From: a virus
DNA: 40,648 nt
IMG/VR virus record: IMGVR_UViG_3300045988_174062
Reading direction: 5' to 3' (one strand)
Shown here: piece by piece, positions 22,572-36,873 of the stretch
Position numbering within the stretch: the stretch's first letter is position 1
How the letters are laid out: each line of letters opens with the position of its first letter
Position numbers and translations under genes: made by a program
Notes under the pieces: model-generated
Database searches by the model: none
What the model saw: the letters and a program-made list of their open reading frames with translations, nothing else
What the model was told of the DNA's origin: nothing

Positions 22572-23597
22572 TTAATTCACCTCTACAAACTCAACGTTTT
22601 TTACTATCAAGTCATACGTTCCTTCATCATTTTCTTTTATAGTGAAGTTTAAGTTATTTCTAATATCATCTAATTTAGCTGATATTTTAATGCCCGTATT
22701 AGTTTTGATATTCCTATTATTTAGCATTTTTTCAGCTACTTTTTTATCTATATTGAATCTAGATATATCATTCTTTTTAAAACGCTCTATAAAGTTATAT
22801 TTAAGCTCTTTATCTTCATGGCTATTGAATATTTCATCTGCTATTTCTTTTACATCTATAACTGAATTATTTAACGCAATATGTTCTAGTACTTCCATAG
22901 CTCTATCGCATTTTATTAAGTTTACTATATGTCTATCCTTTATCCACGCATTTGATAGACACGCTTTAACTGATGCAATGAATACTTTAGTCTTATATGA
23001 ATCATCATCTATCTTATAAGCTTCTAAGAAGTCATTTATAAACTTAGAGCTAATATTTTCTTTTTCAGAATCTTTATCTAGTATTTCTAAGTCATACTCG
23101 CTATTTAAGCTACTGATACCTACTAATGCACATTGCTTCGGTTTCTTAGTATCTGATATTAATTCTTCATTTAACTTCATTTGTATATTAAACTTATCAC
23201 CCTCAAATTCTATTGAACGATTATATGCTGCTCTATAATCTAACTTTATTATTGCTACTCTATATTGATCTTTAACTGTATATAAGCATATAACTAAATC
23301 ACATGAATCTGCATCTGAATCTAATTTCATTATGTCAAATAAATATGCTGCTATTTCTTTTGAGTTTTCTATAAATGTACTTTCATTATGTATTATAGAT
23401 TCACAGCAATCTCTAACTATACAATCTTTTGTATTATCAAATTTAGCTCTTCTTAATAAATCATCTTTGCTTACTTTCTTTATAATGCTTTGTAAAAACT
23501 TATCTATCTGAGGATTTATATTACCCTCAAAATCATTTAATATCGGTTCATCTGATACTTTTGATAATACGTGCGTTATATATCTATGAATTATCAT
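22572..23597 (-). CDS. Nucleoid-associated protein, NdpA/YejK-like
   Basis: The N-terminus MIIHRYITHVLSK... and the length (about 341 aa) resemble the 37-kDa nucleoid-associated protein family. I prefer the ATG at 23597 (AAGGAG RBS, ATGA overlap with the upstream stop) over the track start at 23621. Confidence 0.55.
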   Translation of the reverse strand: MIIHRYITHVLSKVSDEPILNDFEGNINPQIDKFLQSIIKKVSKDDLLRRAKFDNTKDCIVRDCCESIIHNESTFIENSKEIAAYLFDIMKLDSDADSCDLVICLYTVKDQYRVAIIKLDYRAAYNRSIEFEGDKFNIQMKLNEELISDTKKPKQCALVGISSLNSEYDLEILDKDSEKENISSKFINDFLEAYKIDDDSYKTKVFIASVKACLSNAWIKDRHIVNLIKCDRAMEVLEHIALNNSVIDVKEIADEIFNSHEDKELKYNFIERFKKNDISRFNIDKKVAEKMLNNRNIKTNTGIKISAKLDDIRNNLNFTIKENDEGTYDLIVKNVEFVEVN

Positions 23598-23755
23598 TTC
23601 AATCTCCTTTTTTCTATGCACTTGTCACATATAATTTCATTTTTTATTTTTTCTAGCTTTATTGCTCTATTTTTATCAACTAATATATTTTGCTTATCAT
23701 CACAACATTTACACAATAATGTAAATAGTATTAATTCAACTTTTCTCTTCTGCAT
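23594..23755 (-). CDS. Small CxxC...CxxC zinc-ribbon protein (paralog 1)
   Basis: My own translation: MQKRKVELILFTLLCKCCDDKQNILVDKNRAIKLEKIKNEIICDKCIEKRRLK. It is a paralog of 24647..24802. Confidence 0.5.
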   Translation of the reverse strand: MQKRKVELILFTLLCKCCDDKQNILVDKNRAIKLEKIKNEIICDKCIEKRRLK

Positions 23756-24804: not shown

Positions 24805-25002
24805 TTAATCACCTAAAGTTTCATATGGAACTTCTATACCTATTATTTGAGCGTCTAAAGCTTTTCTAGTGCCACTTTGAATATTTATATTAAATACTTT
24901 ACATTTGTTTCTACAAGCCGATTTATGCTCTTTATTTCCTATATAATTTTCACAGAAGCCATCTTCTGATAATTTAAACTTTTCGCATTTATTTTTCGTC
25001 AT
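24805..25002 (-). CDS. Cys-rich hypothetical protein
   Basis: 65-aa ORF with four Cys residues. Confidence 0.45.
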   Translation of the reverse strand: MTKNKCEKFKLSEDGFCENYIGNKEHKSACRNKCKVFNINIQSGTRKALDAQIIGIEVPYETLGD

Positions 25003-25030
25003 ATTTCCCTCTCATATTTTGTTATTTATA

Positions 25031-25972
25031 TCAATTTATTTTTCGCATCATAACATGGATATAAGGCATCCCTGTCCATTTATTTCTTGTTGCTTTAAAT
25101 CCAACAACTTTATATCCAGGATTTAATTTTTCCATTTCTTTTTCAATTAAGTTATGATCACTTTCCATCTTGAATATTTTTCTCTTTGATACTTTTTTAG
25201 ATGTAGTTATAATAGGCTCTTTTAATCCTTGACTACATCCCCAACGTTTTTTTCCTTTTGGGTCTTTTGATAGGTAGTTAGCTAAGTCAGTTAAATGTTT
25301 TTCATCAGGATCTATTCGTCTTATATTATTTCTTCTTCCATACTTCCAGCAGTTTTCAACTTGATCCATTGATAATTCAGAACTCATAATCATATGTACA
25401 TGATATTTTCCTTTGCCTTCTTTTGAAATCTCAATTACATACATATACTTAATTTTCTTGTACTTTTTCTTATTTATTTTGTGCGATAACTTTTTTCCTT
25501 CTTGGTGTACTTGAAGTTTCATGTATTCATAATTAAGTTTGTTTATGTATGCTCTTACGTGCTTTTTAGCTTCTTCATAACTTTTAGGTCTATTATCATT
25601 TCTGTAGTTAAGAGTTAAATAATAATCACCTTTTCCAAAGTTAGCATTTACTTTTCTTATGAAGTTCTTAACTGCATTTTTATTATTGAGATTCTTTTGA
25701 GCCTTCTTAGTAGTTTTAACTCTAAATTCTTCAGGTATATCTTTTTTTAAGAATACTGGGTACATTTCAAGTTCTCTTATTGGTCCTGATGTTATTGTTT
25801 TTGTTTCATATATACAATTACTTCTTGCATCTAGTATTTGATCTATATTGTTTAGACTTACAACTTCACTATCTATAGTTACTTGATGCTCCATCATTGA
25901 ATCTATTAAGTTTTCAAAATCAACTTCTGTATATAGATTTTTCTTTCTCCTTTGACTTTTTTTAACTGACAT
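25031..25972 (-). CDS. HUH-type rolling-circle replication initiator (Rep)
   Basis: 313 aa. KYHVHMIM is an HUH motif (H-hydrophobic-H). It is followed about 40 aa later by a Tyr motif, LANYLSKDPKGKK. The N-terminus is basic. Confidence 0.55.
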   Translation of the reverse strand: MSVKKSQRRKKNLYTEVDFENLIDSMMEHQVTIDSEVVSLNNIDQILDARSNCIYETKTITSGPIRELEMYPVFLKKDIPEEFRVKTTKKAQKNLNNKNAVKNFIRKVNANFGKGDYYLTLNYRNDNRPKSYEEAKKHVRAYINKLNYEYMKLQVHQEGKKLSHKINKKKYKKIKYMYVIEISKEGKGKYHVHMIMSSELSMDQVENCWKYGRRNNIRRIDPDEKHLTDLANYLSKDPKGKKRWGCSQGLKEPIITTSKKVSKRKIFKMESDHNLIEKEMEKLNPGYKVVGFKATRNKWTGMPYIHVMMRKIN

Positions 25973-26114
25973 TCTAACTACCTCTTTTTATTATTTCTTA
26001 CTCAAACTTTAATACTTAGTACAAGTCCGTTAAAAGGCTCACCGAACCATTTAAAAGACTTGTATCTATTAAGTTTTTTGGGGTGTATTATTTTTAGTTA
26101 ATATCACACCTTTT

Positions 26115-26267
26115 TTAATTTTTATCTGTTATATATTCAGTGTCTTTTTCAATTTCCATTTCGTATAATGCTTCTAAACGACCTTTAAAATTTTCAAATT
26201 TTAACGGATTTATTTTTTCTAGGTAAGCCAACTTCCTAGAAAGAGATTCAACTTCTTCACTTGTCAT
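26115..26267 (-). CDS. First early-operon protein (Cro-position), 50 aa
   Basis: I prefer the ATG at 26267 (AGGAGGG RBS 6 nt upstream) over the track start at 26321. Product: MTSEEVESLSRKLAYLEKINPLKF... Confidence 0.45.
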   Translation of the reverse strand: MTSEEVESLSRKLAYLEKINPLKFENFKGRLEALYEMEIEKDTEYITDKN

Positions 26268-26409
26268 ATTATCCCTCCTATTTTTCATGTCTTTGACATA
26301 AATTATATATGTCTTTGTCATGTTTTGTCAATATTTTTCTTTTTTTGACATAATTTTTATTTTTATTATATTGCAATGACATATTTCTTGCTATATAATA
26401 TGTCATGAG
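26268..26409. promoter_or_regulatory. Divergent early/repressor promoter region with repeated ATGTC/GACAT operator-like half-sites
   Basis: Plus strand: TTGCAA (26371-26376), N17, TATAAT (26394-26399), flanked by the perfect 9-bp inverted repeat atgacatat (26375-26383) / atatgtcat (26397-26405). Minus strand: TTGACA (complement of 26326-26331), then about 17-18 nt, then TATAAT. The palindrome ATGTCtttGACAT lies at 26287-26299 and the related atgtctttgtcat at 26309-26321. Confidence 0.6.
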
Positions 26410-26763
26410 GTGATTATTTTGAACACTAGATTAAAAGAATTAAGAAATCATCTTGGGCTATCTCAAAAAGATTTTGGAAGTAAAATTTTTCTATCTCAAG
26501 ATCATATATCTTCACTAGAAAAAGGTAGAAGGAGTATTACAGATAGATCTATAAAAAATATTTGTAATGAGTTCAATGTCAATGAGGAATGGTTACGTTC
26601 TGGAAAAGGTAGTATGTTCCAAGATATAACAAAGGATATATCTGCTCCTGATCATATTAAAGAATTATTAAGAAAATTTAGTTTATTAAGTGAAGATGAT
26701 CAGAAAAAAATGAATATTATGTTAGATGCATTTATATCTGAAAGCAAAAAAGAGGAGAATTAA
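26410..26763 (+). CDS. XRE-family HTH repressor (CI-like)
   Basis: LKELRNHLGLSQKDFGSKIFLSQDHISSLEKGRRSITDRSIKNICNEFNV is a classic XRE HTH. The gene is divergent from the early lytic operon. Confidence 0.8.
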   Translation: MIILNTRLKELRNHLGLSQKDFGSKIFLSQDHISSLEKGRRSITDRSIKNICNEFNVNEEWLRSGKGSMFQDITKDISAPDHIKELLRKFSLLSEDDQKKMNIMLDAFISESKKEEN

Positions 26764-26780
26764 TTTTTCTCCTCTTTTTC
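26751..26780 (+). terminator. Rho-independent terminator of the repressor gene
   Basis: agaggagaa (26751-26759) / ttctcctct (26767-26775) followed by TTTT. The stop codon lies in the loop. Confidence 0.7.
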
Positions 26781-27112
26781 ATTTATTTTAGCATCCATAT
26801 ATCCTTTTAAATATTCAATTTTAGGTTTATTTATTTTATCTAAAAGTATTAATTTTTCTAAAAAAATATTAATCATTTCTGTTTTAACGTTTTCTATCAT
26901 AATTCCGTTCACTACCTCCAAATTTTATACTTTTAAGTATTTTTAGTAATAAATATAGTCACATAAAGAACATATGTTCTCGGCATAACTATACCATTTA
27001 ATGGAATTATTTTCAATATATAACTTCAAAAGTTTGTGAAACCAAAAAAGGCGTATCTACTCTTGTTTATAAAGAATAAATACGCCTTTTATTTTTCATT
27101 TTTATTTTTTAT

Positions 27113-27141
27113 TTGACAAATCCTTTTAAAGGTTTTATTAT
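27113..27141 (+). promoter_or_regulatory. Sigma-A-type promoter for the replication-gene leader
   Basis: TTGACA (27113-27118), N17, TATTAT (27136-27141). Confidence 0.5.
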
Positions 27142-27164
27142 TATCTTAAAATTAAACATAAAAA

Positions 27165-27253
27165 AAGCCTACACCTTGATGGACATCTCACCTTCCATCT
27201 TGGCGAACTTATGATATCCAACCATATCAAAAGCTACTGTAGACTTATTTTTT
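27165..27253. ncRNA. Structured leader / candidate countertranscript element upstream of the replication initiator
   Basis: Long-range stem aagcctaca (27165-27173) / tgtagactt (27238-27246) with inner small hairpins (gatat-ccaacc-atatc). An A-run precedes it and a T-run follows, so it looks terminator-like on both strands. A minus-strand promoter-like TTGAAG-N17-TAATAT lies at 27303-27275. Confidence 0.35.
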
Positions 27254-27340
27254 ACATATATAATTTATGTAATAATATTAACATATATACGTTAATACTT
27301 CAATACTTAAGTTTATTTTTGTATAAAAATTTGTCCTCTT

Positions 27341-27372
27341 AGCCTTGATATTTTGATATCAAGGCTTTTTTA
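27341..27372 (+). terminator. Strong intrinsic terminator / attenuator immediately upstream of the replication-gene RBS
   Basis: agccttgatat (27341-27351), loop tttg, atatcaaggct (27356-27366), then TTTTT. The GGAGGAG RBS and the ATG at 27393 follow within 25 nt. Confidence 0.7.
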
Positions 27373-27392
27373 ATACGGAGGAGAATGACAAA

Positions 27393-28391
27393 ATGAGTAA
27401 TAATAAACCAAGAAAACATAATTTAAAATTTACATTACAAGGATTTAATCAATTAGAAGCTATAAAATTAGGATTAAACAATGATGATCTAACTGTATTA
27501 AGATGGTTTATAGATTTTAAAAATACAGGAGAAATGGAAAAAAACTACATACCAAGTATAAATGACATGGGGCATTGGGTTAATTACTCTACGTTAGTAG
27601 ATAGTTTACCTATTTTATTAAAAGATGGAAATAAATATTTAGAAGAATACTTAGAACTTGAGAAAGCTTATTATAAACTAGATGAAGATTCATATAAAAA
27701 ACTTCGTAAAAAATACATGGAGAAGTATTTAAAGAAAGTACAAAGAATACTATCAGGTAACTTAAGCAAGGTATTAAAAAGAGATTTAACTAAATTAGGA
27801 GAAGAAAAAGGAACTAAAGTATATTTATATGTTGATGAAGAAGCATATAAGAAACTTATATCTAATACAAATATGAATGATTTTTTAAGAGATAATGGTG
27901 TCCAGTACACACAGGACAAAAGTGTCCAGTACACACAGGACAAAAGTGTCCAGTACACACAGGACAAAAGTGTCCAGTCAGATTCTTCTACTAATGATTC
28001 TTCTACTAATGATTCTTCTACTACACAGTCGGAACAAAATGTTCCTGTAGTGGAAACAAATAAAGAACTTATAGAATCAAAAACTCATTTACTTTTAGAT
28101 AGTAAAAATAAAATAGATAAAGTTGCTAAATGGAATAAAGATAGATTAGTAAAAGCTATAGATATATTTGTAGAGCAAGGTGGACAATACTTCTCTTTAT
28201 TAGAAAAGATATACAAAGATGATAAGAACTTTGCACCAAAAGAATTTAAAGTTACTAATAATCAAATGACACAATCTGAAGTTATTTATAAGCCAAATAG
28301 AGCACATAATGTAAATAATACATTTTTAAATTATACTCCAGAGGAGCTTGAAAAACTTCTTCAAGAAAGTCAAAAAAATAAGTTTAAATAA
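27393..28391 (+). CDS. Replication initiator / replisome-organiser-like protein with internal iterons
   Basis: 332 aa. The N-terminal winged-helix-like segment (LTVLRWFIDFKNTG...WVNYSTLVDSLPIL) resembles the plasmid RepA_N / phage replisome organiser / DnaD-type N-termini. The central part is encoded by tandem DNA repeats. The gene lies beside the partition genes. Confidence 0.5.
   Translation: MSNNKPRKHNLKFTLQGFNQLEAIKLGLNNDDLTVLRWFIDFKNTGEMEKNYIPSINDMGHWVNYSTLVDSLPILLKDGNKYLEEYLELEKAYYKLDEDSYKKLRKKYMEKYLKKVQRILSGNLSKVLKRDLTKLGEEKGTKVYLYVDEEAYKKLISNTNMNDFLRDNGVQYTQDKSVQYTQDKSVQYTQDKSVQSDSSTNDSSTNDSSTTQSEQNVPVVETNKELIESKTHLLLDSKNKIDKVAKWNKDRLVKAIDIFVEQGGQYFSLLEKIYKDDKNFAPKEFKVTNNQMTQSEVIYKPNRAHNVNNTFLNYTPEELEKLLQESQKNKFK
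27898..27980. repeat. 3.4 tandem copies of a 24-bp iteron (gtgtccagtacacacaggacaaaa)
   Basis: Perfect copies at 27898-27921, 27922-27945 and 27946-27969, plus a partial copy at 27970-27980. Each unit contains the imperfect palindrome TGTCCAGT..ACAGGACA. The repeats encode (S/G)VQYTQDK x3. Confidence 0.9.
27981..28023. repeat. 2.9 tandem copies of a 15-bp repeat (gattcttctactaat)
   Basis: Copies at 27981-27995 and 27996-28010, with a partial copy at 28011-28023. The repeats encode DSSTN x3. Confidence 0.9.
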
Positions 28392-28526
28392 AAACTTATG
28401 ATGAGACAAGCTTAAGGGAGAAAGAAATTCTTTCTTATTTGATGAAACTGAACCTTGGTAGATAGATAATATAGATAAATTAGTTAATAAATTAAAAAAC
28501 AATCCAATAAACAGGAGGTATAAATA

Positions 28527-28877
28527 ATGAATGAAAAATGGGCAAATAAAGCTAATGAGAATTTATATTCATACTATATGGAACATCCTCTTGAATTTAG
28601 AGAAAAACATGTAGCTATACAAACAATATTAGTTGATTATGCAGAAGAAAATAAGTTACTTTTGCATCCAGATTGGTTTGACTATCCAGAAAATATAATT
28701 AAATATACTAATATTGAACAAAATTTAAATACTAAAAATAAAAGAGAACGTAGTGAAGAAGCATATCATAATGCTGCCTTTGGAGCATGGCATGAATATG
28801 ATGATAGACAAAAAGAATATGTTTTAAATTACGCTAAAGAAAATGGATACTTTATACCATCTAATTGGATAAAGTAA
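28527..28877 (+). CDS. Hypothetical protein
   Basis: 116-aa ORF with a strong AGGAGG RBS. Confidence 0.6.
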   Translation: MNEKWANKANENLYSYYMEHPLEFREKHVAIQTILVDYAEENKLLLHPDWFDYPENIIKYTNIEQNLNTKNKRERSEEAYHNAAFGAWHEYDDRQKEYVLNYAKENGYFIPSNWIK

Positions 28878-28957
28878 TAAGTTGTATTGATAAATTTCAT
28901 AAAACTTATTTAAAAATTACTTAGACTTAAAAAACATACGTGATATATGGAGGGGTT

Positions 28958-29356
28958 ATGACTAAAAAAACAATGCTAGACTTTGAAGATTTAATTTTTG
29001 ATGTATATTTTGCAATTAATGGTGTATCTATACATGATCAAGAATTATTTGATGATATTGAATTAAGAGGGAATTCAAAACTAATATCATACTTGATAAA
29101 CAATAGATTTTATATATTAGTATTAAATGACTTTGATATTGTTATGGCTATAGTTTACAACCATGAAATTTACCATAATTTGATTGAAGAAATCGAAGCT
29201 GATGCAACTAATATTGATTTTTATGATGTAAGAAAAATTTTTACTGATACTAATGGAGTATATACACCAAGTTTACTTGATGTAAAAAGAATAATCACTA
29301 GATGCTACTATAAAAATGAATTAGATAATTTAAGTAATATCGTAAAAAATAGCTAA
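28958..29356 (+). CDS. Hypothetical protein
   Basis: I prefer the ATG at 28958 (GGAGGGG RBS) over the track's GTG at 28940. 132 aa. Confidence 0.55.
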   Translation: MTKKTMLDFEDLIFDVYFAINGVSIHDQELFDDIELRGNSKLISYLINNRFYILVLNDFDIVMAIVYNHEIYHNLIEEIEADATNIDFYDVRKIFTDTNGVYTPSLLDVKRIITRCYYKNELDNLSNIVKNS

Positions 29357-29670
29357 TGATAATACTATTTGAACCAATTCTATTATTATCTAAATAAAAT
29401 AATCATAAAGAGTATGCAATAAAAGATGATGAATAAAAACAATGTAAAAAAATAAAATTCGAAATTACTTCTTAGTAGAAAAAAGCACTTGGACAACAAA
29501 AGAGTAAGAGGAAATTATATAACATTCCTCTACTCTATTTTTTAAGTTAATAGTATAAAACATAGTACTATCAATATGTATATGATATAATAATAGAGGA
29601 ATTGAAATCTATAGAGTGGTGTTTCATTCAAGAACTTACCTACTTCTTTGCAGGAAGGAGGTGAGGAAGT

Positions 29671-29850
29671 ATGGAACAAAAGATAATTGTCGGTATTATA
29701 AGTGCTATTGGTGCAATATGTCTTGGTCTAATGACTAATTATATATCTGACAAATTAAAAAGCCACTCTATGCGAGAGAGTGGCTTAGAGATTAAAATTA
29801 AGTTAAAATTTTTTGAACTTAATTTTAAACTTAAAAATTCTAAAAAATAA
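29671..29850 (+). CDS. Type I toxin candidate 1 (59-aa membrane peptide with Lys-rich tail)
   Basis: My own translation: MEQKIIVGIISAIGAICLGLMTNYISDKLKSHSMRESGLEIKIKLKFFELNFKLKNSKK. A GGAAGGAGGTGAGG RBS is present. An extended -10 TGATATAAT lies at 29583-29591 and a downstream terminator at 29942-29974. Confidence 0.6.
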   Translation: MEQKIIVGIISAIGAICLGLMTNYISDKLKSHSMRESGLEIKIKLKFFELNFKLKNSKK

Positions 29851-29898
29851 TTTTTAGGAACATCACTCTACTGCTAAATAGATTTCAATTCCTTTTAT
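29752..29898 (-). ncRNA. Candidate antitoxin sRNA 1 (antisense to the 3' half of toxin 1 mRNA)
   Basis: A minus-strand extended -10 TGTTATAAT lies at 29913-29905. The hairpin agccactct/agagtggct (29761-29785) is followed on the minus strand by a T-run, so the terminator is embedded in the toxin ORF. The ends are approximate. Confidence 0.4.
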
Positions 29899-29941
29899 AT
29901 TTATATTATAACATAATCAAATATGTTTTAAACTAATTTTT

Positions 29942-29974
29942 GAGATATAGATTAATTTCTATATCTCTTTTTTT
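29942..29974 (+). terminator. Rho-independent terminator (toxin 1 mRNA)
   Basis: gagatatag(a) ... (t)ctatatctc followed by T7. Confidence 0.65.
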
Positions 29975-30134
29975 ACTATTTTGAATAAATTAAAATTATT
30001 ATTGATATATAAATTATTTCTTAGTAGAAAAAAGCACTTTGATAAAATAAGAATATGAAAAAATGATTAATAATAATGCAACAGTATATTAACTAAAATA
30101 AGTATAAAGTTAATATATTATTTATTTTTCAAAG

Positions 30135-30321
30135 TTAAAATTTTATAAAAAATTATAAAATTTTATAAAAATACGATTTGTATAAATTTTATAATTTTTT
30201 ACACTAATTTATAATTTTTTGCAAAATTTTATAAAAAATAATGAAATTAAATATTGCAAAATTTTATAAAATTTGGTAAAATTCAATTAAAGTTGAATAA
30301 GTTTTATAAAGTTTTGTAAAA
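30135..30321. repeat. Centromere-like array (parC candidate) of TTTTATAAAA palindromic decamers, overlapping the par promoter
   Basis: Perfect ttttataaaa at 30141, 30161, 30227 and 30262. There are at least 5 degenerate copies (30151, 30187, 30207, 30302, 30312). ttgcaaaattttataaaa is duplicated at 30219 and 30254. The promoter TTGCAA (30254-30259), N17, TAAAAT (30277-30282) lies inside the array. Confidence 0.6.
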
Positions 30322-30334
30322 GGAGGTGATAAAC

Positions 30335-30550
30335 TTGAGTAGGATTGTTTTAACTTTCAAAAATAACGATAAAGAAAAAGCAATAGAATCTTTTTTAGAT
30401 AGCAAAGTTTCTCCTACTGCTTATATAAAGGAGCTAGTATGGGAGGCTATGAATAACGGAACTATAACAATACCTGTTATATCAGAAGAGCAAAACCAAG
30501 AACAAGAATCCACTAAAAAAAGTAAACCTAAAGTTGGTGGATTTAGATAA
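30335..30550 (+). CDS. parR: ParR-like centromere-binding adaptor (ribbon-helix-helix-type N-terminus)
   Basis: I prefer the TTG at 30335 (AAGGAGG RBS 8 nt upstream). The track's GTG at 30326 sits inside the RBS. The product is about 71 aa: SRIVLTFKNNDKEKAIESFL... (beta strand then helices), with a basic tail. It lies directly upstream of parM. Confidence 0.5.
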   Translation: MSRIVLTFKNNDKEKAIESFLDSKVSPTAYIKELVWEAMNNGTITIPVISEEQNQEQESTKKSKPKVGGFR

Positions 30551-30593
30551 ATGTACATTTAAAATTTAATATTAGAACATTGGAGGAATGAGT

Positions 30594-31535
30594 ATGAAAT
30601 TTGTTAGCGCAGGAATAGACTTAGGAAATAGTATGCTAAAGGCTACTAAAGAATTAAATGGTAAAAAGGTTAATGTGAAAGTTCCAAATAGAGTTCAGTA
30701 TGAAAAATCAATTAACCCTAAAGCAAAAAAAGTTGAATTTAATGGACAAACAATATACATAGGAGTCGGAGAACTTAACAATAATGTTCAAAAACATTCA
30801 AGAAAACATCTGTTAGAGCAAACTTTTGTTATGTTACATGAATTATATCCAAATGAATCAGCTTTAAAAGTTGATTTGAGATTAGGTTTACCACCAGTTC
30901 AATATTTTAATGATGCTCATAAAAGTAATTTTGCAAATATGTTCCCTATAGGTAAGCAATTTGATTTTACTGTAAATGGAATAAATAAGAAGGTTACTTT
31001 TGTATCGTTAGAAATATTTGTAGAAGGATATTCTGCTTTTGTTTCAAATATAGAAAGCATTGGAGATAATAAACAAGATATACTTTCAATTGATGTAGGT
31101 GGAGGTACAACTGATATATGTAGCTTCTCATATGATTATGATGATGAAATGTATTATCCAAATGATACTTTAACTGTACCAAAAGGAGTTATAGATTACG
31201 GTATAGAGATAGCCAATCATTTTAATGAAGTTGAAAATGCAGATATATCAAGTAAATATATAGATAATTTACTTAAAAATAATATTGAAGTAATTGAATA
31301 TAAAGGTAATAAATATAATCTTGAAAATTATTTATCTTCAATAGAGCCAATAGTAAATGACACTACTAATAAGATAACTAATAAGTTCGGTGAACTTGAT
31401 AGATATATTGTAGTTGGAGTTGGTGGTGGTTATAAGACATATAACAGAATGATTAAAGATAGAATAGCAGCAGAGATAGAATTAGATGAATATGCTCAAT
31501 TTTTCGGCAATTCAGAAGGATATTTAGAGCAATAA
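30594..31535 (+). CDS. parM: ParM/StbA-family actin-like segregation ATPase
   Basis: GIDLGNSMLKA (phosphate-1) and LSIDVGGGTTDI (phosphate-2) are actin-fold motifs. About 313 aa. I prefer the ATG at 30594 on RBS spacing. Confidence 0.8.
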   Translation: MKFVSAGIDLGNSMLKATKELNGKKVNVKVPNRVQYEKSINPKAKKVEFNGQTIYIGVGELNNNVQKHSRKHLLEQTFVMLHELYPNESALKVDLRLGLPPVQYFNDAHKSNFANMFPIGKQFDFTVNGINKKVTFVSLEIFVEGYSAFVSNIESIGDNKQDILSIDVGGGTTDICSFSYDYDDEMYYPNDTLTVPKGVIDYGIEIANHFNEVENADISSKYIDNLLKNNIEVIEYKGNKYNLENYLSSIEPIVNDTTNKITNKFGELDRYIVVGVGGGYKTYNRMIKDRIAAEIELDEYAQFFGNSEGYLEQ

Positions 31536-31540
31536 AATAA

Positions 31541-31573
31541 AAGTCAGTAGGTATCACTCTACTCTACTGACTT
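31541..31573 (+). terminator. Hairpin after parM (no clear U-tract)
   Basis: aagtcagtag (31541-31550) pairs with ctactgactt (31564-31573). Confidence 0.35.
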
Positions 31574-31682
31574 AAGACAATATAATTACAATAAAAAAGA
31601 CACATCCAAAGTGGAATATGCCTTTACCCTCGCAAGTAATAGTATATACCACTTGGATGCAAAATTCAAGGAGGAAAATACA

Positions 31683-31871
31683 ATGATATTAAAATACATA
31701 AATACAATGGCAAGATTAGAAAAAAGAGAGGGTAAATTAGGAACTATGATAGGGATTTTATTATCAATAGTGATGTTATTAATCGGTATTATGATAGTTA
31801 TGTTTGGATTACATATAATGAGTAAAGCATCTATAAATTTACTTGAATATATAAATGATATATTTTATTAA
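31683..31871 (+). CDS. Small membrane protein (62 aa)
   Basis: An AAGGAGG RBS lies 8 nt upstream of the ATG at 31683. Hydrophobic core: MIGILLSIVMLLIGIMIVMFGLHIM. The track's longer start at 31611 lacks an RBS. Confidence 0.5.
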   Translation: MILKYINTMARLEKREGKLGTMIGILLSIVMLLIGIMIVMFGLHIMSKASINLLEYINDIFY

Positions 31872-31880
31872 GGAGTTTTT

Positions 31881-32024
31881 ATGATGGAGCAATTATATTT
31901 TGAGGAAGTATTAGATAATCTTTTTGTATCTAATACTTGTAGAAAATGCAAGAATAATTGTAAAGTATTATGTATATCTGAAGATGCAATTATATATTGT
32001 AGGAACTTTGAAATAATTTACTAG
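31881..32024 (+). CDS. Small Cys-rich protein (47 aa)
   Basis: My own translation: MMEQLYFEEVLDNLFVSNTCRKCKNNCKVLCISEDAIIYCRNFEIIY. An AAGGAG RBS is present and the terminator at 32032-32065 follows. Confidence 0.4.
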   Translation: MMEQLYFEEVLDNLFVSNTCRKCKNNCKVLCISEDAIIYCRNFEIIY

Positions 32025-32031
32025 ATAATAA

Positions 32032-32065
32032 AAAGGCATATGAGGTTAATCATATGCCTTTTTAT
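32032..32065 (+). terminator. Rho-independent terminator
   Basis: aaaggcatatga / tcatatgccttt with loop ggttaa, then a T-run. Confidence 0.75.
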
Positions 32066-32230
32066 TGTAAAAATTAATTGTAAAAAATGTCCCTTTTAAT
32101 ATATCATATATATGTTTTTTTGAAAACCTAAAAATCCGAGTAGAGAAAAACAACTTAACCAAAAGGATTAGATGTTTCTTGTATAGAAATAGTTTCTTAT
32201 AGAATTGAAAATATAAAAGGTGGTGTTTCA

Positions 32231-32539
32231 TTGCTAAAGAAACTAAAGAAAAATGATTATAATTGGACTGGAAAATACATTAAAGAATATAATCAAATGG
32301 TTTCATATTATGAGAAACAGTTAGAGGAAAAGAATAGGATCATCGACTCTTTAAGTATAGAAAATAAGAATTTAAAAAATAGCATAAAGTTTCAAGGGAA
32401 ACAGAAACAAATTTCAGATAAAGACATAAATAAAATAAGAAAATTAAAAAATGAAGGTAAGAGTTATAGTTACATATCGAGTGAAACGGGATGGAGCAAG
32501 GCAACTATAAGTAGAGTTATTAATAATAAAAATTATTAA
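32231..32539 (+). CDS. Coiled-coil protein with a resolvase-type C-terminal HTH only (no catalytic domain)
   Basis: 102 aa with a TTG start. The C-terminus KIRKLKNEGKSYSYISSETGWSKATISRVINNK looks like the HTH_7-type domain of serine recombinases. Confidence 0.55.
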   Translation: MLKKLKKNDYNWTGKYIKEYNQMVSYYEKQLEEKNRIIDSLSIENKNLKNSIKFQGKQKQISDKDINKIRKLKNEGKSYSYISSETGWSKATISRVINNKNY

Positions 32540-32625
32540 AAAAATAGTCGATAAAATAAACAAAATTTGTTTACAAAAACAACCAAAAATGGTATTATAA
32601 TATTAAAGTTGAGGAGGGTAAGACA

Positions 32626-32979
32626 ATGAAAGTAACTGAATTTGGAAAATTCTCAAGAAAATTACGAATTGAGAATGATGAATTACTTAGAGATATGGCT
32701 AATAAGCTAGGTGTTACAGCTTCTTATTTATCTGCTGTAGAAATAGGTAAAAGAAATATACCAAAAAAATGGGAAAATATTATTGTTAACGCTTATCAGC
32801 TTGATAATAGTAAAGCCTTGGAATTAAGAGAGTCAATAGAGTACTCTATAAAAGTAATAAATATAGAGGTAGAACAATTAAATAATGAAGATAAAAATTT
32901 AATATTTATGTTAGCTAGAAAGGTTAATAATCTTGATGAAAAAGATAAAAATGAATTAAGAGAAATTTTATTTAGGTAA
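32626..32979 (+). CDS. XRE-family HTH protein (ImmR-like partner of the metallopeptidase)
   Basis: FGKFSRKLRIENDELLRDMANKLGVTASYLSAVEIGKRNIP is an XRE HTH. A GAGGAGGG RBS is present. Confidence 0.75.
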   Translation: MKVTEFGKFSRKLRIENDELLRDMANKLGVTASYLSAVEIGKRNIPKKWENIIVNAYQLDNSKALELRESIEYSIKVINIEVEQLNNEDKNLIFMLARKVNNLDEKDKNELREILFR

Positions 32980-32992
32980 AGAGGTGATAGAT

Positions 32993-33538
32993 TTGTCCTA
33001 TAAAACCAGGCCAAGATCTATAAAAGAAATACGCAATAAAGCAGAGATAGTTAGATCAATTATCCAAATTACAACAAACACATCTGGTGATAGTATAGAT
33101 ATTTTAAGGTTTGTGGAAAATGAAATAAGAGATAAAATAGATGAAAATTTCAATTTTATAGTATGTACTGAAGATGAGATGAAATCTAACTATGGAACAA
33201 CTTATTTAAATAAAAATACTATATGTATACGTGAAGATGTATACTATAGAGCTTGTGATGGTAATAGTAGAGATTTATTTACTATAGCCCATGAGTTAGG
33301 ACATTTATTTCTTCATTCGAATCAAAATGTTGAGTTAGCTAGGTCATCATCAGACGTGAAATTATATGAAGATGCAGAATGGCAAGCTAATACATTTGCT
33401 GCAGAATTGCTTATGCCTGCTAAATTAATAACTGAATGTGATACTCATTTTACTTTGATGAATCGATTTGGAGTTTCATATGAAGCAGCAGATATAAGAT
33501 TGAAAAAATTAGGTATTTATAACACTCAGTGTTGTTGA
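32993..33538 (+). CDS. ImmA/IrrE-family zinc metallopeptidase (COG2856-like)
   Basis: The HEXXH motif TIAHELGHLFLH plus downstream EWQANTFAAELLMP. The start is ambiguous: TTG at 32993 is preferred on RBS spacing, against the track's GTG at 32984. Confidence 0.8.
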   Translation: MSYKTRPRSIKEIRNKAEIVRSIIQITTNTSGDSIDILRFVENEIRDKIDENFNFIVCTEDEMKSNYGTTYLNKNTICIREDVYYRACDGNSRDLFTIAHELGHLFLHSNQNVELARSSSDVKLYEDAEWQANTFAAELLMPAKLITECDTHFTLMNRFGVSYEAADIRLKKLGIYNTQCC

Positions 33539-33565
33539 TATAAATATAAATAAAATAAAATAAAA

Positions 33566-33624
33566 AAAGTCTATTTGTCGATAGACTTTGTAAAAAGATT
33601 AAACTAAATTTGTCGATTTAGTTT
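33566..33624 (+). other. Twin stem-loops with identical TTGTCG loops
   Basis: aaagtctat-TTGTCG-atagacttt (33566-33589) and aaactaaat-TTGTCG-atttagttt (33601-33624). Both have 9-bp stems and they lie 35 bp apart. Confidence 0.6.
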
Positions 33625-33705
33625 TGTATATTTAAATATCACTAAATAACATTGTATACAAATTATTATCTTTTTGCAATTATTTTATTTGGAAAGGAGA
33701 TAATA

Positions 33706-33834
33706 ATGTACATTTTTAGAGCTTCTAAAACTGTAAATGGACAAAAAATATATGCTAAAGATTATGGAAAAAAAGCATTCCCTATATGGGTAGGTCCTAA
33801 AGGAAAACAAGAGAAGAATAAAATAAAAAAATAA
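33706..33834 (+). CDS. Small basic protein (42 aa)
   Basis: A GGAAAGGAG RBS lies upstream. Product: MYIFRASKTVNGQKIYAKDYGKKAFPIWVGPKGKQEKNKIKK. Confidence 0.4.
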   Translation: MYIFRASKTVNGQKIYAKDYGKKAFPIWVGPKGKQEKNKIKK

Positions 33835-33904
33835 GAAAATATATATTAAAATATAACTAAATATATACTGTTTATTTTTATATATTTTGTAGTATAATAT
33901 AAAT

Positions 33905-34036
33905 ATAAAAGGAACTTCAATCTATTTGCACTAGAGTGATGTTTCCAAAACTTTAATTTTTGGTAATTTTGAACTTGATTTTTATTTCAAGTTCCACGCC
34001 ACTCTTAGTTTTCCTAGAACTAGAGTGGCTTTTTAA
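33905..34036 (+). ncRNA. Candidate antitoxin sRNA 2
   Basis: Promoter ...ttttgtagTATAAT (33893-33898). The terminator gccactct (33998-34005) / agagtggc (34022-34029) plus T5 is embedded in the toxin 2 ORF. The ends are approximate. Confidence 0.4.
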
Positions 34037-34117
34037 TTTGTCGGATATGTAGTTAGTCAATAGACCAAGACATATTGTGCAAATAGCACCTATGACAATA
34101 TTTATCATTTGTTCCAT
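33953..34117 (-). CDS. Type I toxin candidate 2 (54 aa; paralog of toxin 1)
   Basis: My own translation: MEQMINIVIGAICTICLGLLTNYISDKLKSHSSSRKTKSGVELEIKIKFKITKN. A GGAAGGAGGTGAG RBS is present. The promoter TGATATAAT lies on the minus strand at 34207-34199. Confidence 0.6.
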   Translation of the reverse strand: MEQMINIVIGAICTICLGLLTNYISDKLKSHSSSRKTKSGVELEIKIKFKITKN

Positions 34118-34365
34118 ACTTCTCACCTCCTTCCGTTAAGAAGTAGGCTTTATATTTAGTATGGAAACACCACTCTATAAATTGAAATTCCTATATTTAT
34201 TATATCATATCCATATAAGTTTTTATATACTTCAATCATTTCTTTGTTTTTATTATATAAATAAAACAAAATTTCATAAATTAATAAATGAACAAAAAAC
34301 ATTAATAAATGTATATTTTGTTCATTTATTAATTTATGAACGAAATAAAATAATTAGAGCTATGC

Positions 34366-34467
34366 CGAAAACTAAAAAACGAAGGCAAAAGTTATAGTTA
34401 CATATCAAGTGTAACAGGCTGGAGCAAAGCAATTATAAGCAGAGTTATAAATAATAAAAATTATTAA
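34366..34467 (+). pseudogene. 3' remnant of a paralog of the 32231..32539 HTH gene
   Basis: About 88% identical over about 110 bp to 32440-32550. It would encode ...KLKNEGKSYSYISSVTGWSKAIISRVINNKNY*. An in-frame stop lies 5 codons upstream and there is no start codon. Confidence 0.7.
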
Positions 34468-34495
34468 AAAAATAGTATTATTTAACTGAAATATA

Positions 34496-34524
34496 TTGAC
34501 TCACCGTAACGGTTATGTTATAAT
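34496..34524 (+). promoter_or_regulatory. Near-consensus sigma-A promoter
   Basis: TTGACT (34496-34501), N17 ending in TGT (extended -10), TATAAT (34519-34524). Confidence 0.65.
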
Positions 34525-34551
34525 ATAAATATAGAAAGGGAGGTGAAGAAA

Positions 34552-34671
34552 GTGGCAAATAGAAGAAAACAAAAGAAAAAAAAGAAGAACACAGAACTTG
34601 CGACGGCTCGAATTCTTCTTTTGATAGAAATACTTAGCATAGTAAATACTATACTAGATAAGTTTTTCTAA
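34552..34671 (+). CDS. Small protein (39 aa) with a poly-Lys N-terminus and a hydrophobic C-terminus
   Basis: GTG start with an AGGGAGGTG RBS. Product: VANRRKQKKKKKNTELATARILLLIEILSIVNTILDKFF. The hairpin at 34671-34698 follows. Confidence 0.35.
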   Translation: MANRRKQKKKKKNTELATARILLLIEILSIVNTILDKFF

Positions 34672-34698
34672 TACTTAGGGGCGAAAGCCCTTAAGTAT
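34671..34698 (+). terminator. GC-rich hairpin (weak U-tract)
   Basis: atacttagggg-cgaaag-cccttaagtat. Confidence 0.4.
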
Positions 34699-34818
34699 AT
34701 AAGTTTTCTTTCATTATACCACAATGTACTATGAACGATACAAATAAATTATTAAAAATATCAATTGCATTAGCAATAGTAAATATAGTTCTACAAATAT
34801 TTTTATAGGAGATTAAAA

Positions 34819-34998
34819 ATGAGTAAAAAAAGATTAAAAGTAAATTTTAATAAAGGTGGTAATGGTGGAGTTAGTGCAAAGCTAACTCTTCCAATAACAA
34901 TGGTTAGAGAATTAGGAATTGATGAAGAAAATAAGTTCATTGATGTAGTTTGTGAAGATGGCAAAATAATAATTGTTAAATCAGAAACTCAAGAATAG
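34819..34998 (+). CDS. AbrB/MazE/SpoVT-type DNA-binding protein (59 aa)
   Basis: My own translation: MSKKRLKVNFNKGGNGGVSAKLTLPITMVRELGIDEENKFIDVVCEDGKIIIVKSETQE. The pattern G..S..LTLP....RELGI.....I.V..EDGKIII.K is the looped-hinge-helix fold signature. Confidence 0.6.
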   Translation: MSKKRLKVNFNKGGNGGVSAKLTLPITMVRELGIDEENKFIDVVCEDGKIIIVKSETQE

Positions 34999-35081
34999 TA
35001 TAAATATATTATAATAATATGAAAAAAATACATTAAAATATATACTGTGTATTTTTCTGCATTTTGTAGTATAATAAAAAC

Positions 35082-35192
35082 ATAGAAATAAAAAAGAGAA
35101 ATTATAATCTAGTGGAATAGAGTGTGATTTCTATAAATACATGTTTTTATTTATTAGAATCACTCTTATTGCCAGTAAGAGTGATTTTTAAT
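35082..35192 (+). ncRNA. Candidate antitoxin sRNA 3
   Basis: The promoter ...ttttgtagTATAAT (35070-35075) is homologous to the sRNA 2 promoter region. The terminator is aatcactctta (35158-35168) / taagagtgatt (35176-35186) plus T-run. It overlaps the 3' end of toxin 3. Confidence 0.4.
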
Positions 35193-35269
35193 TTATCATA
35201 AATAAATGCTCCGATGATGCTAATGATTATAGCATCAGAGTTATTTAATAATAACTTTAAAATTTCCAT
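35147..35269 (-). CDS. Type I toxin candidate 3 (40 aa)
   Basis: I prefer the ATG at 35269 (AAAGGAGGTG RBS). Product: MEILKLLLNNSDAIIISIIGAFIYDKLKITLTGNKSDSNK. The promoter TGTTATAAT lies on the minus strand at 35374-35366. Confidence 0.5.
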   Translation of the reverse strand: MEILKLLLNNSDAIIISIIGAFIYDKLKITLTGNKSDSNK

Positions 35270-35501
35270 ACTTACACCTCCTTTCTTTCGTGAAAGTAGG
35301 TGTTTTTTCTTTTGTATAGAAATCATCACTCTTAGATTATAATTTCTCTAAAAATATTATAACATAAAACCATTTACTAAAATAAAATAAATTGTTAACA
35401 GTTTTACTAAACACTTTATTTTCATAAATTAATTATTGAATAAAAATAAATATAAATGATATAATATTTTCATAAGTTAATTTATGAAAATAGGTGATGA
35501 A

Positions 35502-36140
35502 ATGAAAATTTTTAAAGAAATATTAGATACACATACTAAGATATGTACTTGTAGAAAAGTGTATAAAATAAATGATGATATTGAAATTATAATTGACCAG
35601 AAGGACAATAAATTAGTTATGTGGGGAGTTAATCATAAAACAGATAGGTTTTTAAATTTATCTACAAAGAGATTTAAAATGCTTATGGATGGATTTAAGT
35701 CAGTAGCTAGTGATTTATATTCAAGCGGAAGTAAGAATCAAAATTACTATTACATAACTATAGGTAAATCTATTAATAATTCTAAGGCTACAGAAAATAA
35801 TGATAAAGTAGATATTGATTTATTGAAAGAAGAAATAAAAAGTTTGAAAGAAAAGTTATTGTTGCTAGATAGTGAAAATAATAAGTTAAAGGAAGATCTG
35901 GAAAGATATAAAAGAGAGTATTTATATTATTCTAATGAATATACAAATTTGAAAAAAGAAAATGAAAAAGGAAAATTAAATATTCATAATGCTAGAGGAG
36001 CAGGTAGAAAGGCTAAATTTACTGATTGTCAAGTTGATGAGATAAAAAGACTTAGGGAAAGTGGAAATACTATAAACGAAATAGCAAAAGTATTTAATTG
36101 TTCAGTTGGTTTAATTCATAAATTAATAAATGAAAAATAA
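35502..36140 (+). CDS. Coiled-coil protein with a resolvase-type C-terminal HTH (no recombinase catalytic domain)
   Basis: I prefer the ATG at 35502 (AGGTGA RBS). The C-terminus ARGAGRKAKFTDCQVDEIKRLRESGNTINEIAKVFNCSVGLIHKLINEK is HTH_7-like. The extended -10 TGATATAAT lies at 35457-35465. Confidence 0.6.
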   Translation: MKIFKEILDTHTKICTCRKVYKINDDIEIIIDQKDNKLVMWGVNHKTDRFLNLSTKRFKMLMDGFKSVASDLYSSGSKNQNYYYITIGKSINNSKATENNDKVDIDLLKEEIKSLKEKLLLLDSENNKLKEDLERYKREYLYYSNEYTNLKKENEKGKLNIHNARGAGRKAKFTDCQVDEIKRLRESGNTINEIAKVFNCSVGLIHKLINEK

Positions 36141-36286
36141 ATCTAAAAACATACAATATATTCATTTATTAATTTATAAACAAAATATATATGAAATTTA
36201 TATGGCATAAAAGTATTAGTTTTATGCCTATATTGAAATTTCAACGTTTTATAGAATTTAAGAACTGACATTACCAGTTTTCAACA

Positions 36287-36350
36287 TTATCAACAAGTTT
36301 ATCAACAAAAATATATGATTTACTAACAAAAAAATATAAATTATCAACAA
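36287..36350. repeat. Three perfect TTATCAACAA repeats plus one variant (DnaA-box-like, one mismatch)
   Basis: ttatcaacaa at 36287-36296, 36299-36308 and 36341-36350. The variant tactaacaaa lies at 36321-36330. Confidence 0.7.
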
Positions 36351-36445
36351 AAATACCTACTTTTATCAGGAGGTAATAATCTAATTATAGTTTATTTGAT
36401 TAATATGTATATGTATTATATAATTGTAAATAAATGGAGGTTATT

Positions 36446-36853
36446 ATGAAAAAAAAACATGTACTTACAATTAGTTTATTAGTAATTATTTTTATTATAG
36501 GAAATATAGTATATATTTCAAAATTTAGAGGTTTAAATATTTTAGATAGGGATAGTATAAGTATTATTAAAGAAATAAAATCACCTGATGGTAAGAATAA
36601 GGCAATTGTTTATTTAGATAGTGGCAGTGCAACAGTACCTAATAACATTAGAGTTGCGATTGTTAAAAATAATAAAAAAAATGCATATGAGTCTAATATC
36701 GTATACTTACAGAATAGATCAGATTTTATAAATGTAAAATGGAAAAGTTATAATACTTTATTAATTGAATATAAAGAAGATGGTGATTCTGACATTATAA
36801 TAAATAAAACTTTATATAAAAATATTAATATTGAATATAAAAAGCAAGGTTAA
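36446..36853 (+). CDS. N-terminally membrane-anchored protein (135 aa)
   Basis: MKKKHVLTISLLVIIFIIGNIVYI is a signal-anchor, followed by a beta-rich domain. A GGAGG RBS lies 5 nt before the ATG at 36446. The gene is convergent with the effector gene. Confidence 0.6.
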   Translation: MKKKHVLTISLLVIIFIIGNIVYISKFRGLNILDRDSISIIKEIKSPDGKNKAIVYLDSGSATVPNNIRVAIVKNNKKNAYESNIVYLQNRSDFINVKWKSYNTLLIEYKEDGDSDIIINKTLYKNINIEYKKQG

Positions 36854-36872: not shown

Positions 36873-36873
36873 T

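Follow-up and report, generated by a model that had tools for sequence, protein, structure and literature searches.

The DNA analyzed here is the IMG/VR virus record IMGVR_UViG_3300045988_174062 (40,648 nucleotides, referred to below as the window), which carries a siphovirus with a partition cassette and two different replication proteins. An earlier note made from its sequence had proposed that this virus is a phage-plasmid that does not integrate. The features that the note lists are all present at the positions it gives. Our analysis supports this proposal: no recombinase was detected, a partition cassette and an iteron-containing initiator are present, contigs of relatives in 143 collection blocks lack host flanks, two related elements of a cultured isolate form circles, and the Clostridium perfringens phage phiSM101, recorded as episomal, shares the layout. 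From sequence and contig statistics, we consider a non-integrating phage-plasmid very probable. The complete explanation, mechanism included, is that of a circular temperate siphovirus of a Romboutsia-like host that would be kept as a low-copy plasmid in lysogens, and we hold it with good confidence. The division of labor in this mechanism, with the iteron initiator driving theta replication in lysogeny and a Rep protein driving rolling-circle replication after induction, is somewhat favored on the basis of gene position and orientation.

Phage-plasmids are established and common in Clostridia, and both the lifestyle and the layout were already known from phiSM101. What is new is the identification of an initiator family, its host-copying tail, and the exchange of matched cassettes.

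Closed genome and search for a recombinase

The first 119 bases of the window are identical to the last 119 (positions 1-119 and 40530-40648, an exact direct repeat). A relative at 99.6% identity is a MEGAHIT contig named k119_71736, and because of this name the overlap was read as the assembler signature of a circular path. Given the overlap, the genome is a closed circle with a true length of about 40,529 bp. Its G+C content is 26%. Pfam and PHROGs returned a siphovirus gene set with complete virion, packaging and lysis functions, and the temperate signature consists of a CI-type repressor, divergent consensus promoters, an ImmR/ImmA pair and an antirepressor. The host is probably a gut member of the Peptostreptococcaceae, of the genus Romboutsia; the family was assigned because homologs are named after uncultured Romboutsia sp., Romboutsia sp., Paraclostridium and Terrisporobacter.

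Pfam was searched at E <= 0.01 with 130 open reading frames (ORFs) of at least 40 amino acids (aa) from all six frames (16,058 aa), and PHROGs with 20 ORFs. Both scans agree with the claim that the closed genome has no tyrosine or serine recombinase. Phage_integrase, Resolvase, Recombinase, rve and DDE domains were absent from the 130 ORFs, and the catalytic models PF00589, PF00239 and PF07508 gave no match in them at this threshold; a hidden Markov model search of this kind, which the earlier note had named as a check, has thereby been run, with no recombinase detected. The only recombinase-related Pfam signals are HTH_7 in the ORF at 35484-36140 (aa 174-208) and HTH_38 in that at 32231-32539. 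Matches of both ORFs to PHROGs "DNA invertase" profiles cover approximately profile positions 152-204 of 254, i.e., the DNA-binding helix-turn-helix end, and the resolvase-like sequences are isolated helix-turn-helix domains, as had been noticed before. The same models do detect a 213-aa tyrosine recombinase (72 bits) in an integrated distant relative, G003, which is described below; because this match is recognizable, recombinases are detectable in the lineage.

Some relatives at 95-99% identity contain, in the early operon, an ORF of 194-204 aa with the flag "Phage_integrase (weak)" (L015, 4505-5089; L018, 1621-2205; and at the edge of L012). It was rejected as an integrase, with no Pfam match at 1e-5 and no HxxR...Y pattern by eye, and may be a degenerate recombinase remnant. 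No homolog of this ORF was found in the window (tblastn best E 0.36).

Contigs of relatives and a cultured isolate

The nearest protein variant, P0002 (98% identical), was recorded in 143 collection blocks, none with a contig above 50 kb; in 45 of them, the longest was 20-50 kb. The P0002 contigs listed were 38.7-40.9 kb, with the circle opened at varying points, and therefore reads span any packaging end. Two further phage proteins (57 and 150 blocks) showed the same size cap with one outlier each, and the only contigs over 50 kb were two MEGAHIT outliers of 63.7 kb and 94.3 kb. The 63.7-kb contig was rejected as a host junction: two distinct head modules are present and the 40 kb that were read contain no host gene, which points to a phage-phage chimera or co-assembly.

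In the cultured isolate MGYG-HGUT-00102 (G004), two related elements each had a contig to themselves: one is 38,608 bp long and its ends overlap exactly by 181 bp; for the other, the values are 36,456 bp and 124 bp. Other contigs of this isolate exceed 500 kb. Neither tyrosine nor serine recombinases were found in these two elements.

A DnaD-like initiator with repeats in its gene

The ORF at 27393-28391 on the plus strand (P0001, 332 aa) was identified as a predicted DnaD-like replication initiator because of its slot, a homolog on a plasmid, its modularity, homology to host DnaB_2 proteins, its tail, related architectures and its repeats. It had been described as an iteron-containing initiator with a regulated leader, and the features behind this description (perfect repeats, promoter, terminator hairpin and leader fold) were borne out in 27113-28391. 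The protein consists of an N-terminal domain (aa 10-170), a disordered linker encoded by the repeats (aa 173-220), a DDBH2-like domain (aa 222-283) and a tail (aa 303-332). P0001 had no match in Pfam, PHROGs or NCBIfam, and the family profile had none among PDB sequences at E <= 10. Neither P0001 nor 10 relatives matched Pfam DnaB_2 (PF07261); membership in RepA_N (PF06970) or Rep_3 was rejected for the same proteins, with no profile match.

Sister phages L029 and L031 have in the same slot, which extends from the repressor to a conserved 116-aa ORF, a 416-aa Rep_3 protein (Rep3_N and Rep3_C); the slot holds a winged-helix HTH_36-type protein in G001 and a "plasmid replication protein" in phiSM101. 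A homolog of P0001 is encoded by the 36.8-kb Paraclostridium tenue plasmid CP191263.1, and homologs are also found on large P. sordellii plasmids, known by record name only.

Within the family, the N-terminal domain occurs in two interchangeable versions, the linker is disordered in the AlphaFold2 (AF2) model, and the C-terminal domain is strongly conserved. In four related host genomes, the family profile matched chromosomally encoded replication proteins with a DnaB_2 domain, and hhalign of the family against these host proteins gave a probability of 98.6% (E 9e-16, 86 columns), with the confident columns mostly in the tail. The family motif Y266xxxL270xxxY274 aligns opposite host YINGIIEKW, which we take to be the YxxxIxxxW signature of DnaD-type domains; across 75 sequences, Y274 alone is invariant. 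The protein ends in 30 residues (RAHNVNNTFLNYTPEELEKLLQESQKNKFK) that share 67-77% identity with the very end of host DnaD/DnaB_2-type proteins. In four of the five elements with a known host, the tail of their own host was the best match, the fifth (L020) was tied, and one pair reached 97%. The tail of the window initiator is nearest to that of Romboutsia. Structural searches gave Foldseek matches to DnaD domains that were not significant (TM 0.49-0.58), and the whole model had no significant match in PDB, a search that the disordered linker probably hampers. In BFVD, one match was significant (1.3e-6, a "phage conserved C-terminal domain" protein), and those below the threshold were replisome organizers and replication initiators. 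A full-length homolog, P0263, has a Pfam DnaB_2 match (3e-5) at the equivalent position and a DnaA N-terminal domain at its end.

The linker-coding part of the gene contains tandem repeats at 27898-28023, in which a 24-bp unit is present 3.4 times (27898-27978) and a 15-bp unit 2.9 times (27981-28023); the copies are 100% identical. Relatives at 95-98% identity have 2.4 or approximately 1.4 copies of the 24-bp unit, and because of this lower copy number their initiators are 324 and 316 aa long. Central tandem repeats were present at the same position in all family genes that were examined, the plasmid homolog among them, with lineage-specific units (27 bp with GTAC-N6-GTAC; 34/23 bp with GTGCA-AAA-TGCAC; 12 bp), several of which have palindromic cores. 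Some repeat periods are not multiples of three. The repeats look like iterons located inside the initiator gene, and selection for a peptide repeat would be hard to invoke; 27898-28023 is our candidate for the plasmid origin.

Upstream of the gene, a promoter with an 11/12 match (TTGACA-17-TATTAT, 27113-27141, plus strand) precedes a structured leader that extends to 27392. The leader, approximately 250 nt, has a minimum free energy of -54.4 kcal/mol (z = -5.39 against shuffled controls) and ends, directly before the ribosome-binding site, in a terminator hairpin (27341-27366). Nothing in the whole window came near any Rfam gathering score, and therefore the leader does not belong to a known class of riboswitch or small RNA. 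Alignments with relatives show that leader and initiator gene are swapped together as a single module. At 27259-27272 on the minus strand, the leader also contains the repressor-operator-like motif (TTACATAAATTATA) with one mismatch (five sites genome-wide, 3.2 expected), which could reflect a link between initiator expression and the repressor, or chance.

Partition cassette

The segment 30136-31535 is, as judged from its genes and repeats, a ParMRC-type (type II) cassette in which binding of the adaptor to the repeat array is predicted. The earlier note had placed here a ParM actin-like ATPase, a ParR-like adaptor and an upstream centromere array; the first and the last of these are well supported, and the adaptor in part.

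The ATPase is a 315-aa actin-like protein (ALP) encoded at 30588-31535 on the plus strand. It matches ALP_N (1.4e-8, 35.5 bits, cut-off 26.3) and the PHROGs family phrog_691, "partition protein" (5e-39). Among solved structures, the nearest are those of C. botulinum ParM (PDB 7x54/7x3h, 7e-13; 6.6e-13 for 7x54), and it is 47.6% identical to the ALP of Clostridioides phage records of approximately 132 kb.

Ahead of it, in the ParR position, lies a 71-aa adaptor gene (30335-30550, plus strand; phrog_4223, 3e-18), the start of which we corrected to TTG at 30335, as in homologs. In these homologs, a strand (RIVLTF in the window), a pair of helices and the basic peptide at the C-terminus (KSKPKVGGFR) are conserved; in the window adaptor, an acidic linker separates the helices from the peptide. 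Conservation and co-variation with the repeats speak for a ParR-like adaptor, whereas the ribbon-helix-helix fold could not be demonstrated and PDB sequences gave no match.

The centromere/operator-like array at 30136-30321 comprises 7-9 copies of AAATTTTATAA(A) with a period of about 10 bp (18.5 copies of period 10 in Tandem Repeats Finder) and overlaps promoter-like sites. Eight of the 11 genome-wide sites of AWTTTATAAW fall within 133 bp (30140-30272), where approximately 0.04 would be expected. The array is 96% conserved in L012 and L014. In the circular element G004:C12 from the cultured isolate, the adaptor is approximately 77% identical over its first 43 aa, the ALP is only 25% identical and the flanks are unrelated, and the same array motif occurs 8-10 times upstream of the cassette. 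Cassettes with other adaptors carry other arrays: a 95-bp unit present 3.3 times, AAAGTTGTAAAAA, ATAACGT palindromes, or GGTTC palindromes. The centromere thus appears to co-vary with the adaptor, and we regard this as the strongest argument for a partition role.

In the related CBgs-type ParM system, ParR was shown by electrophoretic mobility shift assay to bind palindromic parC repeats upstream of the operon (bioRxiv 10.1101/2022.03.07.483215). CBgs-ParM (7x54) was published as "genome-encoded", with a replication initiation factor, an N-acetylmuramoyl-L-alanine amidase and a Cro/CI regulator reported as neighbors. Because these neighbors resemble the maintenance arm of the window, such "chromosomal" ParMRCs may sit on phage-plasmids.

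Early operon and immunity region

On the minus strand, 25031-25972 encodes a 313-aa HUH rolling-circle Rep, located 3' of the Cro-position ORF. That a protein of this type belongs to the early operon had been read from the sequence, and the assignment was confirmed by PF23343 (REP_ORF2-G2P; 36.7 bits, cut-off 27.8, E 5e-9), phrog_3584 (3e-61) and three readable motifs (motif I, YYLTLNY; HUH, YHVHMIM; YxxK, LANYLSK). A homolog was found in the same position in every relative examined (L012-L018, G001, C11, C12 and L019), phiSM101 included. No nick site or motif for Rep was identified in the window; the sole origin candidate for it is an inverted repeat between the Cro-position ORF and rep (26020-26064, 21-nt arms, 81% complementary, 3-nt loop), which is a putative double-strand origin or a terminator. 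The early operon also contains a gene for NA37, an NdpA-type nucleoid-associated protein of 349 aa (22572-23621, minus strand). In C11, C12 and L019 this gene is directly 3' of the HUH Rep gene, which suggests that Rep and NA37 form a functional pair.

The Cro-position ORF occupies 26115-26267 on the minus strand; its start was corrected to ATG at 26267 (50 aa), preceded by the ribosome-binding site AGGAGGG, and it is 50-56 aa long in relatives. Between it and the repressor gene, the region 26294-26405 has divergent promoters, one on the minus strand (26331-26302, 12/12 match, its -10 element ending at 26302) and one on the plus strand (26345-26372, 11/12), together with three TGACATA-type operator-like sites. 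The CI-type repressor (117 aa; 26410-26763, plus strand) matches HTH_3 (2.8e-11) and phrog_8 (2e-19) and is followed by a terminator at 26747-26779. A small ORF at 26760-26921 on the minus strand, 39-53 aa in relatives and with a promoter-like site at 27016-26988, converges on the repressor gene and lies at the edge of the immunity module.

Exchange of modules among relatives

Alignments with relatives placed the boundaries of an immunity module at 26,115-26,915, of an initiator module at approximately 26,915-28,513 and of a partition module at approximately 29,550/29,990-31,531. At least four ALP cassettes occur among backbones that are otherwise 95-99% identical, and three initiator types occupy the same slot across sister phages. 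In C. perfringens, the specificity of ParR for parC governs plasmid compatibility (PMC9426499). The independent swapping of initiator and partition units in these phages is the pattern expected of incompatibility determinants.

Proposed mechanism and alternative explanations

The plus (repressor-side) strand carries three maintenance units, the initiator, the ParMRC-type cassette and toxin-antitoxin (TA)-like cassettes, each with its own promoter, and the opposite strand carries the perfect-consensus promoter, the Cro-position ORF and then the HUH Rep gene. In the mechanism that we propose, the CI-type repressor would silence the early operon, including Rep, in lysogeny. The N-terminal domain of the initiator would bind the in-gene repeats, and its DnaD-like domain and host-copying tail would recruit the host primosome, resulting in theta replication, with the leader restricting the initiator supply through attenuation or sequestration of the ribosome-binding site. 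The adaptor, bound to the AAATTTTATAAAA array, would couple sister copies to ALP filaments, and the TA cassettes would kill cells that lose the element. After induction, Rep would nick an origin and start rolling-circle (sigma) replication, yielding concatemers for the HNH/TerS/TerL packaging machine.

Several observations weigh against this explanation or parts of it. Two long contigs were seen in part, the 94.3-kb outlier (ERZ27259161:k141_3592), with only phage genes in the 24 kb read, and a 48-kb scaffold containing a close relative (ERZ28663598 scaffold_413); both encode proteins that are also found, unchanged, on standard-size contigs. Some metagenome contigs could come from replicating or encapsidated DNA, which would likewise lack host flanks. 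A distant relative in Romboutsia sp. Marseille-P6047 (G003; initiator 44% identical, with an ALP-like gene) is integrated: it lies in a 196-kb contig, adjoins a riboflavin operon, a response regulator gene, MgtE and an ABC-F gene, and carries the 213-aa tyrosine recombinase mentioned above. In the wider family, a P0001-like initiator and an ALP therefore do not exclude integration when a recombinase is present. The AF2 model of the adaptor has low confidence (pLDDT 58), with two helices visible and an unassignable fold. A relative with approximately 1.4 copies of the 24-bp repeat exists, and this repeat may not be essential. Finally, the assignment of the initiator to lysogeny and of Rep to the lytic cycle draws solely on position.

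Beside the integrated relative, the 3' end of an ABC ATPase gene (G003:C12, 155256-155876) seems to be missing, and the attachment site may be located here.

The alternative that survives best, and which we nevertheless consider unlikely, is that the roles differ or are shared. The DnaD-like protein would then be a lytic replisome organizer and the ALP would position replicating DNA after induction; neither would be a dedicated plasmid-maintenance gene, Rep might act in lysogeny too, and the phage could still be episomal. DnaD-like replisome organizers with an in-gene origin are typical of Firmicutes lytic modules (SPP1 G38P), the sub-threshold BFVD matches include "replisome organizer" proteins, and the integrated G003 relative has both gene types. 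A precedent is the AlpAC system of the prophage CGP3 of Corynebacterium glutamicum, in which an adaptor gene precedes the phage actin gene, the adaptor binds repeats upstream, in the promoter region, and the system is needed for phage replication (PMC4446434). CGP3 is integrated, however, and the alpAC genes are induced early and assist lytic replication, whereas the cassette of the window is on the repressor-side strand of a phage without a recombinase. Both the initiator and the ALP are encoded on that strand under their own promoters, outside the early operon, which already has a dedicated Rep conserved in all relatives. Moreover, sister phages fill the initiator slot with Rep_3, a plasmid theta initiator, a homolog of the initiator is found on a non-phage plasmid, and the initiator and partition cassettes are swapped among near-identical backbones in the manner of incompatibility determinants (cf. 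PMC9426499). G003 and AlpAC lower our confidence in the lifestyle much less than in the roles, because the window is without the enzyme of the integrated relative.

It is very unlikely that the phage integrates after all, by means of a recombinase missed by the profiles, of host XerCD at a dif-like site or of the HUH Rep acting as an integrase, in which case the circles would be excised or replicating DNA. Host Xer or HUH enzymes do integrate some phages and mobile elements (CTX-phi, HUH transposases), and about one third of the ORFs in the window are without known function; the integrated G003 and the two over-length contigs, seen only in part, also point this way. Yet no ORF of at least 40 aa has a recombinase domain, whereas the enzyme of G003 is readily recognized at 72 bits. 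Host flanks were absent from contigs in 143, 150 and 57 blocks, the contigs over 50 kb being two MEGAHIT outliers of which one is a chimera and one was partly inspected, and isolate G004 has two circular stand-alone contigs next to others over 500 kb. Partition and TA cassettes would, in addition, be superfluous for an integrated prophage. That there is no stable lysogen at all, the phage being instead in a carrier state or replicating chronically, with plasmid-like genes left over from recombination with plasmids, is scarcely credible: the close relatives all come from metagenomes, but relatives live in cultured isolates, the repressor has operators and is accompanied by the ImmR/ImmA pair, and the maintenance genes are intact, conserved and evidently selected, as indicated by centromere-adaptor co-variation, the host-tracking tail and precise cassette exchange.

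Comparison with known systems

The non-integrating phage-plasmid proposed here is closest in layout to phiSM101 (C. perfringens SM101; NC_008265), which was described as a complete episomal phage (PMC9234517) and cited among Clostridiales phage-plasmids (PMC7969092). Both are circular siphoviruses (approximately 38 kb in phiSM101) with the same gene order and no annotated integrase: HNH/TerS/TerL, head and tail genes on one strand, an early operon with HUH Rep (31% identity), and then a divergent repressor, a separate replication protein and an actin-like partition protein with a small ORF. The second initiator of phiSM101, however, is unrelated (BLASTP E 0.49) and on the other strand, its ALP is 23% identical and ahead of the small ORF, and its host is Clostridium rather than a member of the Peptostreptococcaceae.

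P1 has separate plasmid and lytic replicons, an iteron-controlled plasmid replicon, partition with a centromere, and an addiction module. The window is predicted from its genes to share separate replicons, iterons, active partition and an addiction module. P1 differs in using RepA/oriR, ParA/ParB (type I) partition and Cre/lox dimer resolution, whereas the window has a DnaD-like initiator, actin-based (type II) partition, an HUH nickase as the predicted lytic initiator and no resolvase.

RepA_N initiators (pSK41, pAD1) and SPP1 G38P combine an N-terminal DNA-binding domain, an in-gene repeat origin and a C-terminal contact to host replication proteins, with DnaD-like folds, and RepA_N genes have antisense-controlled leaders. 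The window initiator shares this arrangement of an N-terminal domain, central in-gene repeats and a C-terminal host-directed domain, but it matches neither Pfam RepA_N nor DnaB_2, and its kinship with DnaD appears only in profile-profile comparison and in the tail. It resembles RepA_N in layout (candidate in-gene origin, leader predicted to be regulatory) and is not filed here as a member.

With the clostridial ParMRC systems (CBgs-ParMRC of C. botulinum; about 10 C. perfringens plasmid families), the window has in common an actin-like ATPase, a small adaptor and an adjacent repeat array. Identity to CBgs-ParM, although it is the closest solved relative, is low; in the window, the adaptor gene is ahead of the ATPase gene, and the cassette is phage-borne.

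C. difficile phages have also been reported as plasmid prophages (PMC10778935, PMC9234517). Extrachromosomal phages of the phiCD38-2, phiCD6356 and phiCD211 type are, like the virus of the window, temperate and have hosts in the same bacterial family, and the approximately 132-kb Clostridioides records contain the closest ALP homologs in the phage database. They differ in that predicted integrases were reported for the C. difficile plasmid prophages, and parA for some of them (phiCDHM14, phiCD6356). A megablast search of the phage collection with 25000-32000 gave no match, to C. difficile phages or any other.

Implications

The window is a widespread gut example of this lifestyle, its nearest variant being present in more than 140 collection blocks, with Romboutsia as the probable host. 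It provides a functional assignment for a gene family without Pfam, NCBIfam or PDB matches, and a clear case of replication and partition cassettes traded, together with their matched DNA sites, among near-identical phages. Possible uses are the prediction of host range and compatibility of gut phage-plasmids, the annotation of elements filed as "hypothetical" or as "chromosomal ParM", and minimal replicons for genetic tools in Peptostreptococcaceae.

Four linked readings go further and are offered, as a set, tentatively. First, the initiators would be an undescribed family, present on plasmids and phage-plasmids, that captures the host primosome with a near-copy of the last 30 residues of host DnaD/DnaB_2 proteins. 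Second, the tail would set the host range, and the interchangeable N-terminal domain and in-gene iterons would set incompatibility. Third, with 4-5 interchangeable ParMRC cassettes, several sister phage-plasmids would coexist in one cell, as in G004. Fourth, clostridial ParMRCs described as genome-encoded (CBgs type) may in reality be located on such phage-plasmids.

Other features of the window

Between the initiator and partition modules, two conserved ORFs of 116 and 138 aa are encoded on the plus strand (28527-29356; 28527-28877 and 28940-29356, respectively). They had no family match and were recognized by synteny. The 116-aa ORF is retained beside both P0001-type and Rep_3-type initiators and may be a replicon-independent maintenance or control factor. 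The first type I TA-like cassette follows at 29583-29974 (plus strand), with a 59-aa membrane peptide (29671-29850) and terminators at 29786-29760 (minus) and 29942-29967 (plus); its paralogs lie in paralogous segments at approximately 33893-34207 and 35070-35374.

The plus-strand arm extends from approximately 26,400 to 36,900. The minus strand carries the genes for tail endopeptidase, Dit and tape measure; head-tail adaptors, capsid, ClpP protease and portal; TerL, TerS and HNH; and the early operon. Past the arm, it carries holin, amidase, a sigma factor and a peptidoglycan-binding toxin-domain protein. In this last region (36434-39726), the sigma factor is TcdR/BotR-like (TIGR03209, 2e-6), the toxin-domain protein has two PG_binding_1 domains and Ntox44, and a DUF5412 membrane protein is also encoded together with the amidase and the holin. 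A tRNA search of the window found none.

The contig ERZ27287163:k141_163208 (L045, 1-10000) has another head and packaging module (Terminase_2/3, SPP1 portal, scaffold) fused to the same tail, lysis and maintenance genes, which shows that whole structural modules are swapped mosaically in this phage group. Insertions of the IS200/IS605 type are found in the maintenance arm of two relatives, with TnpB and a Y1 transposase in L014 (11753-13244) and TnpB alone in G004:C12 (23101-24228).

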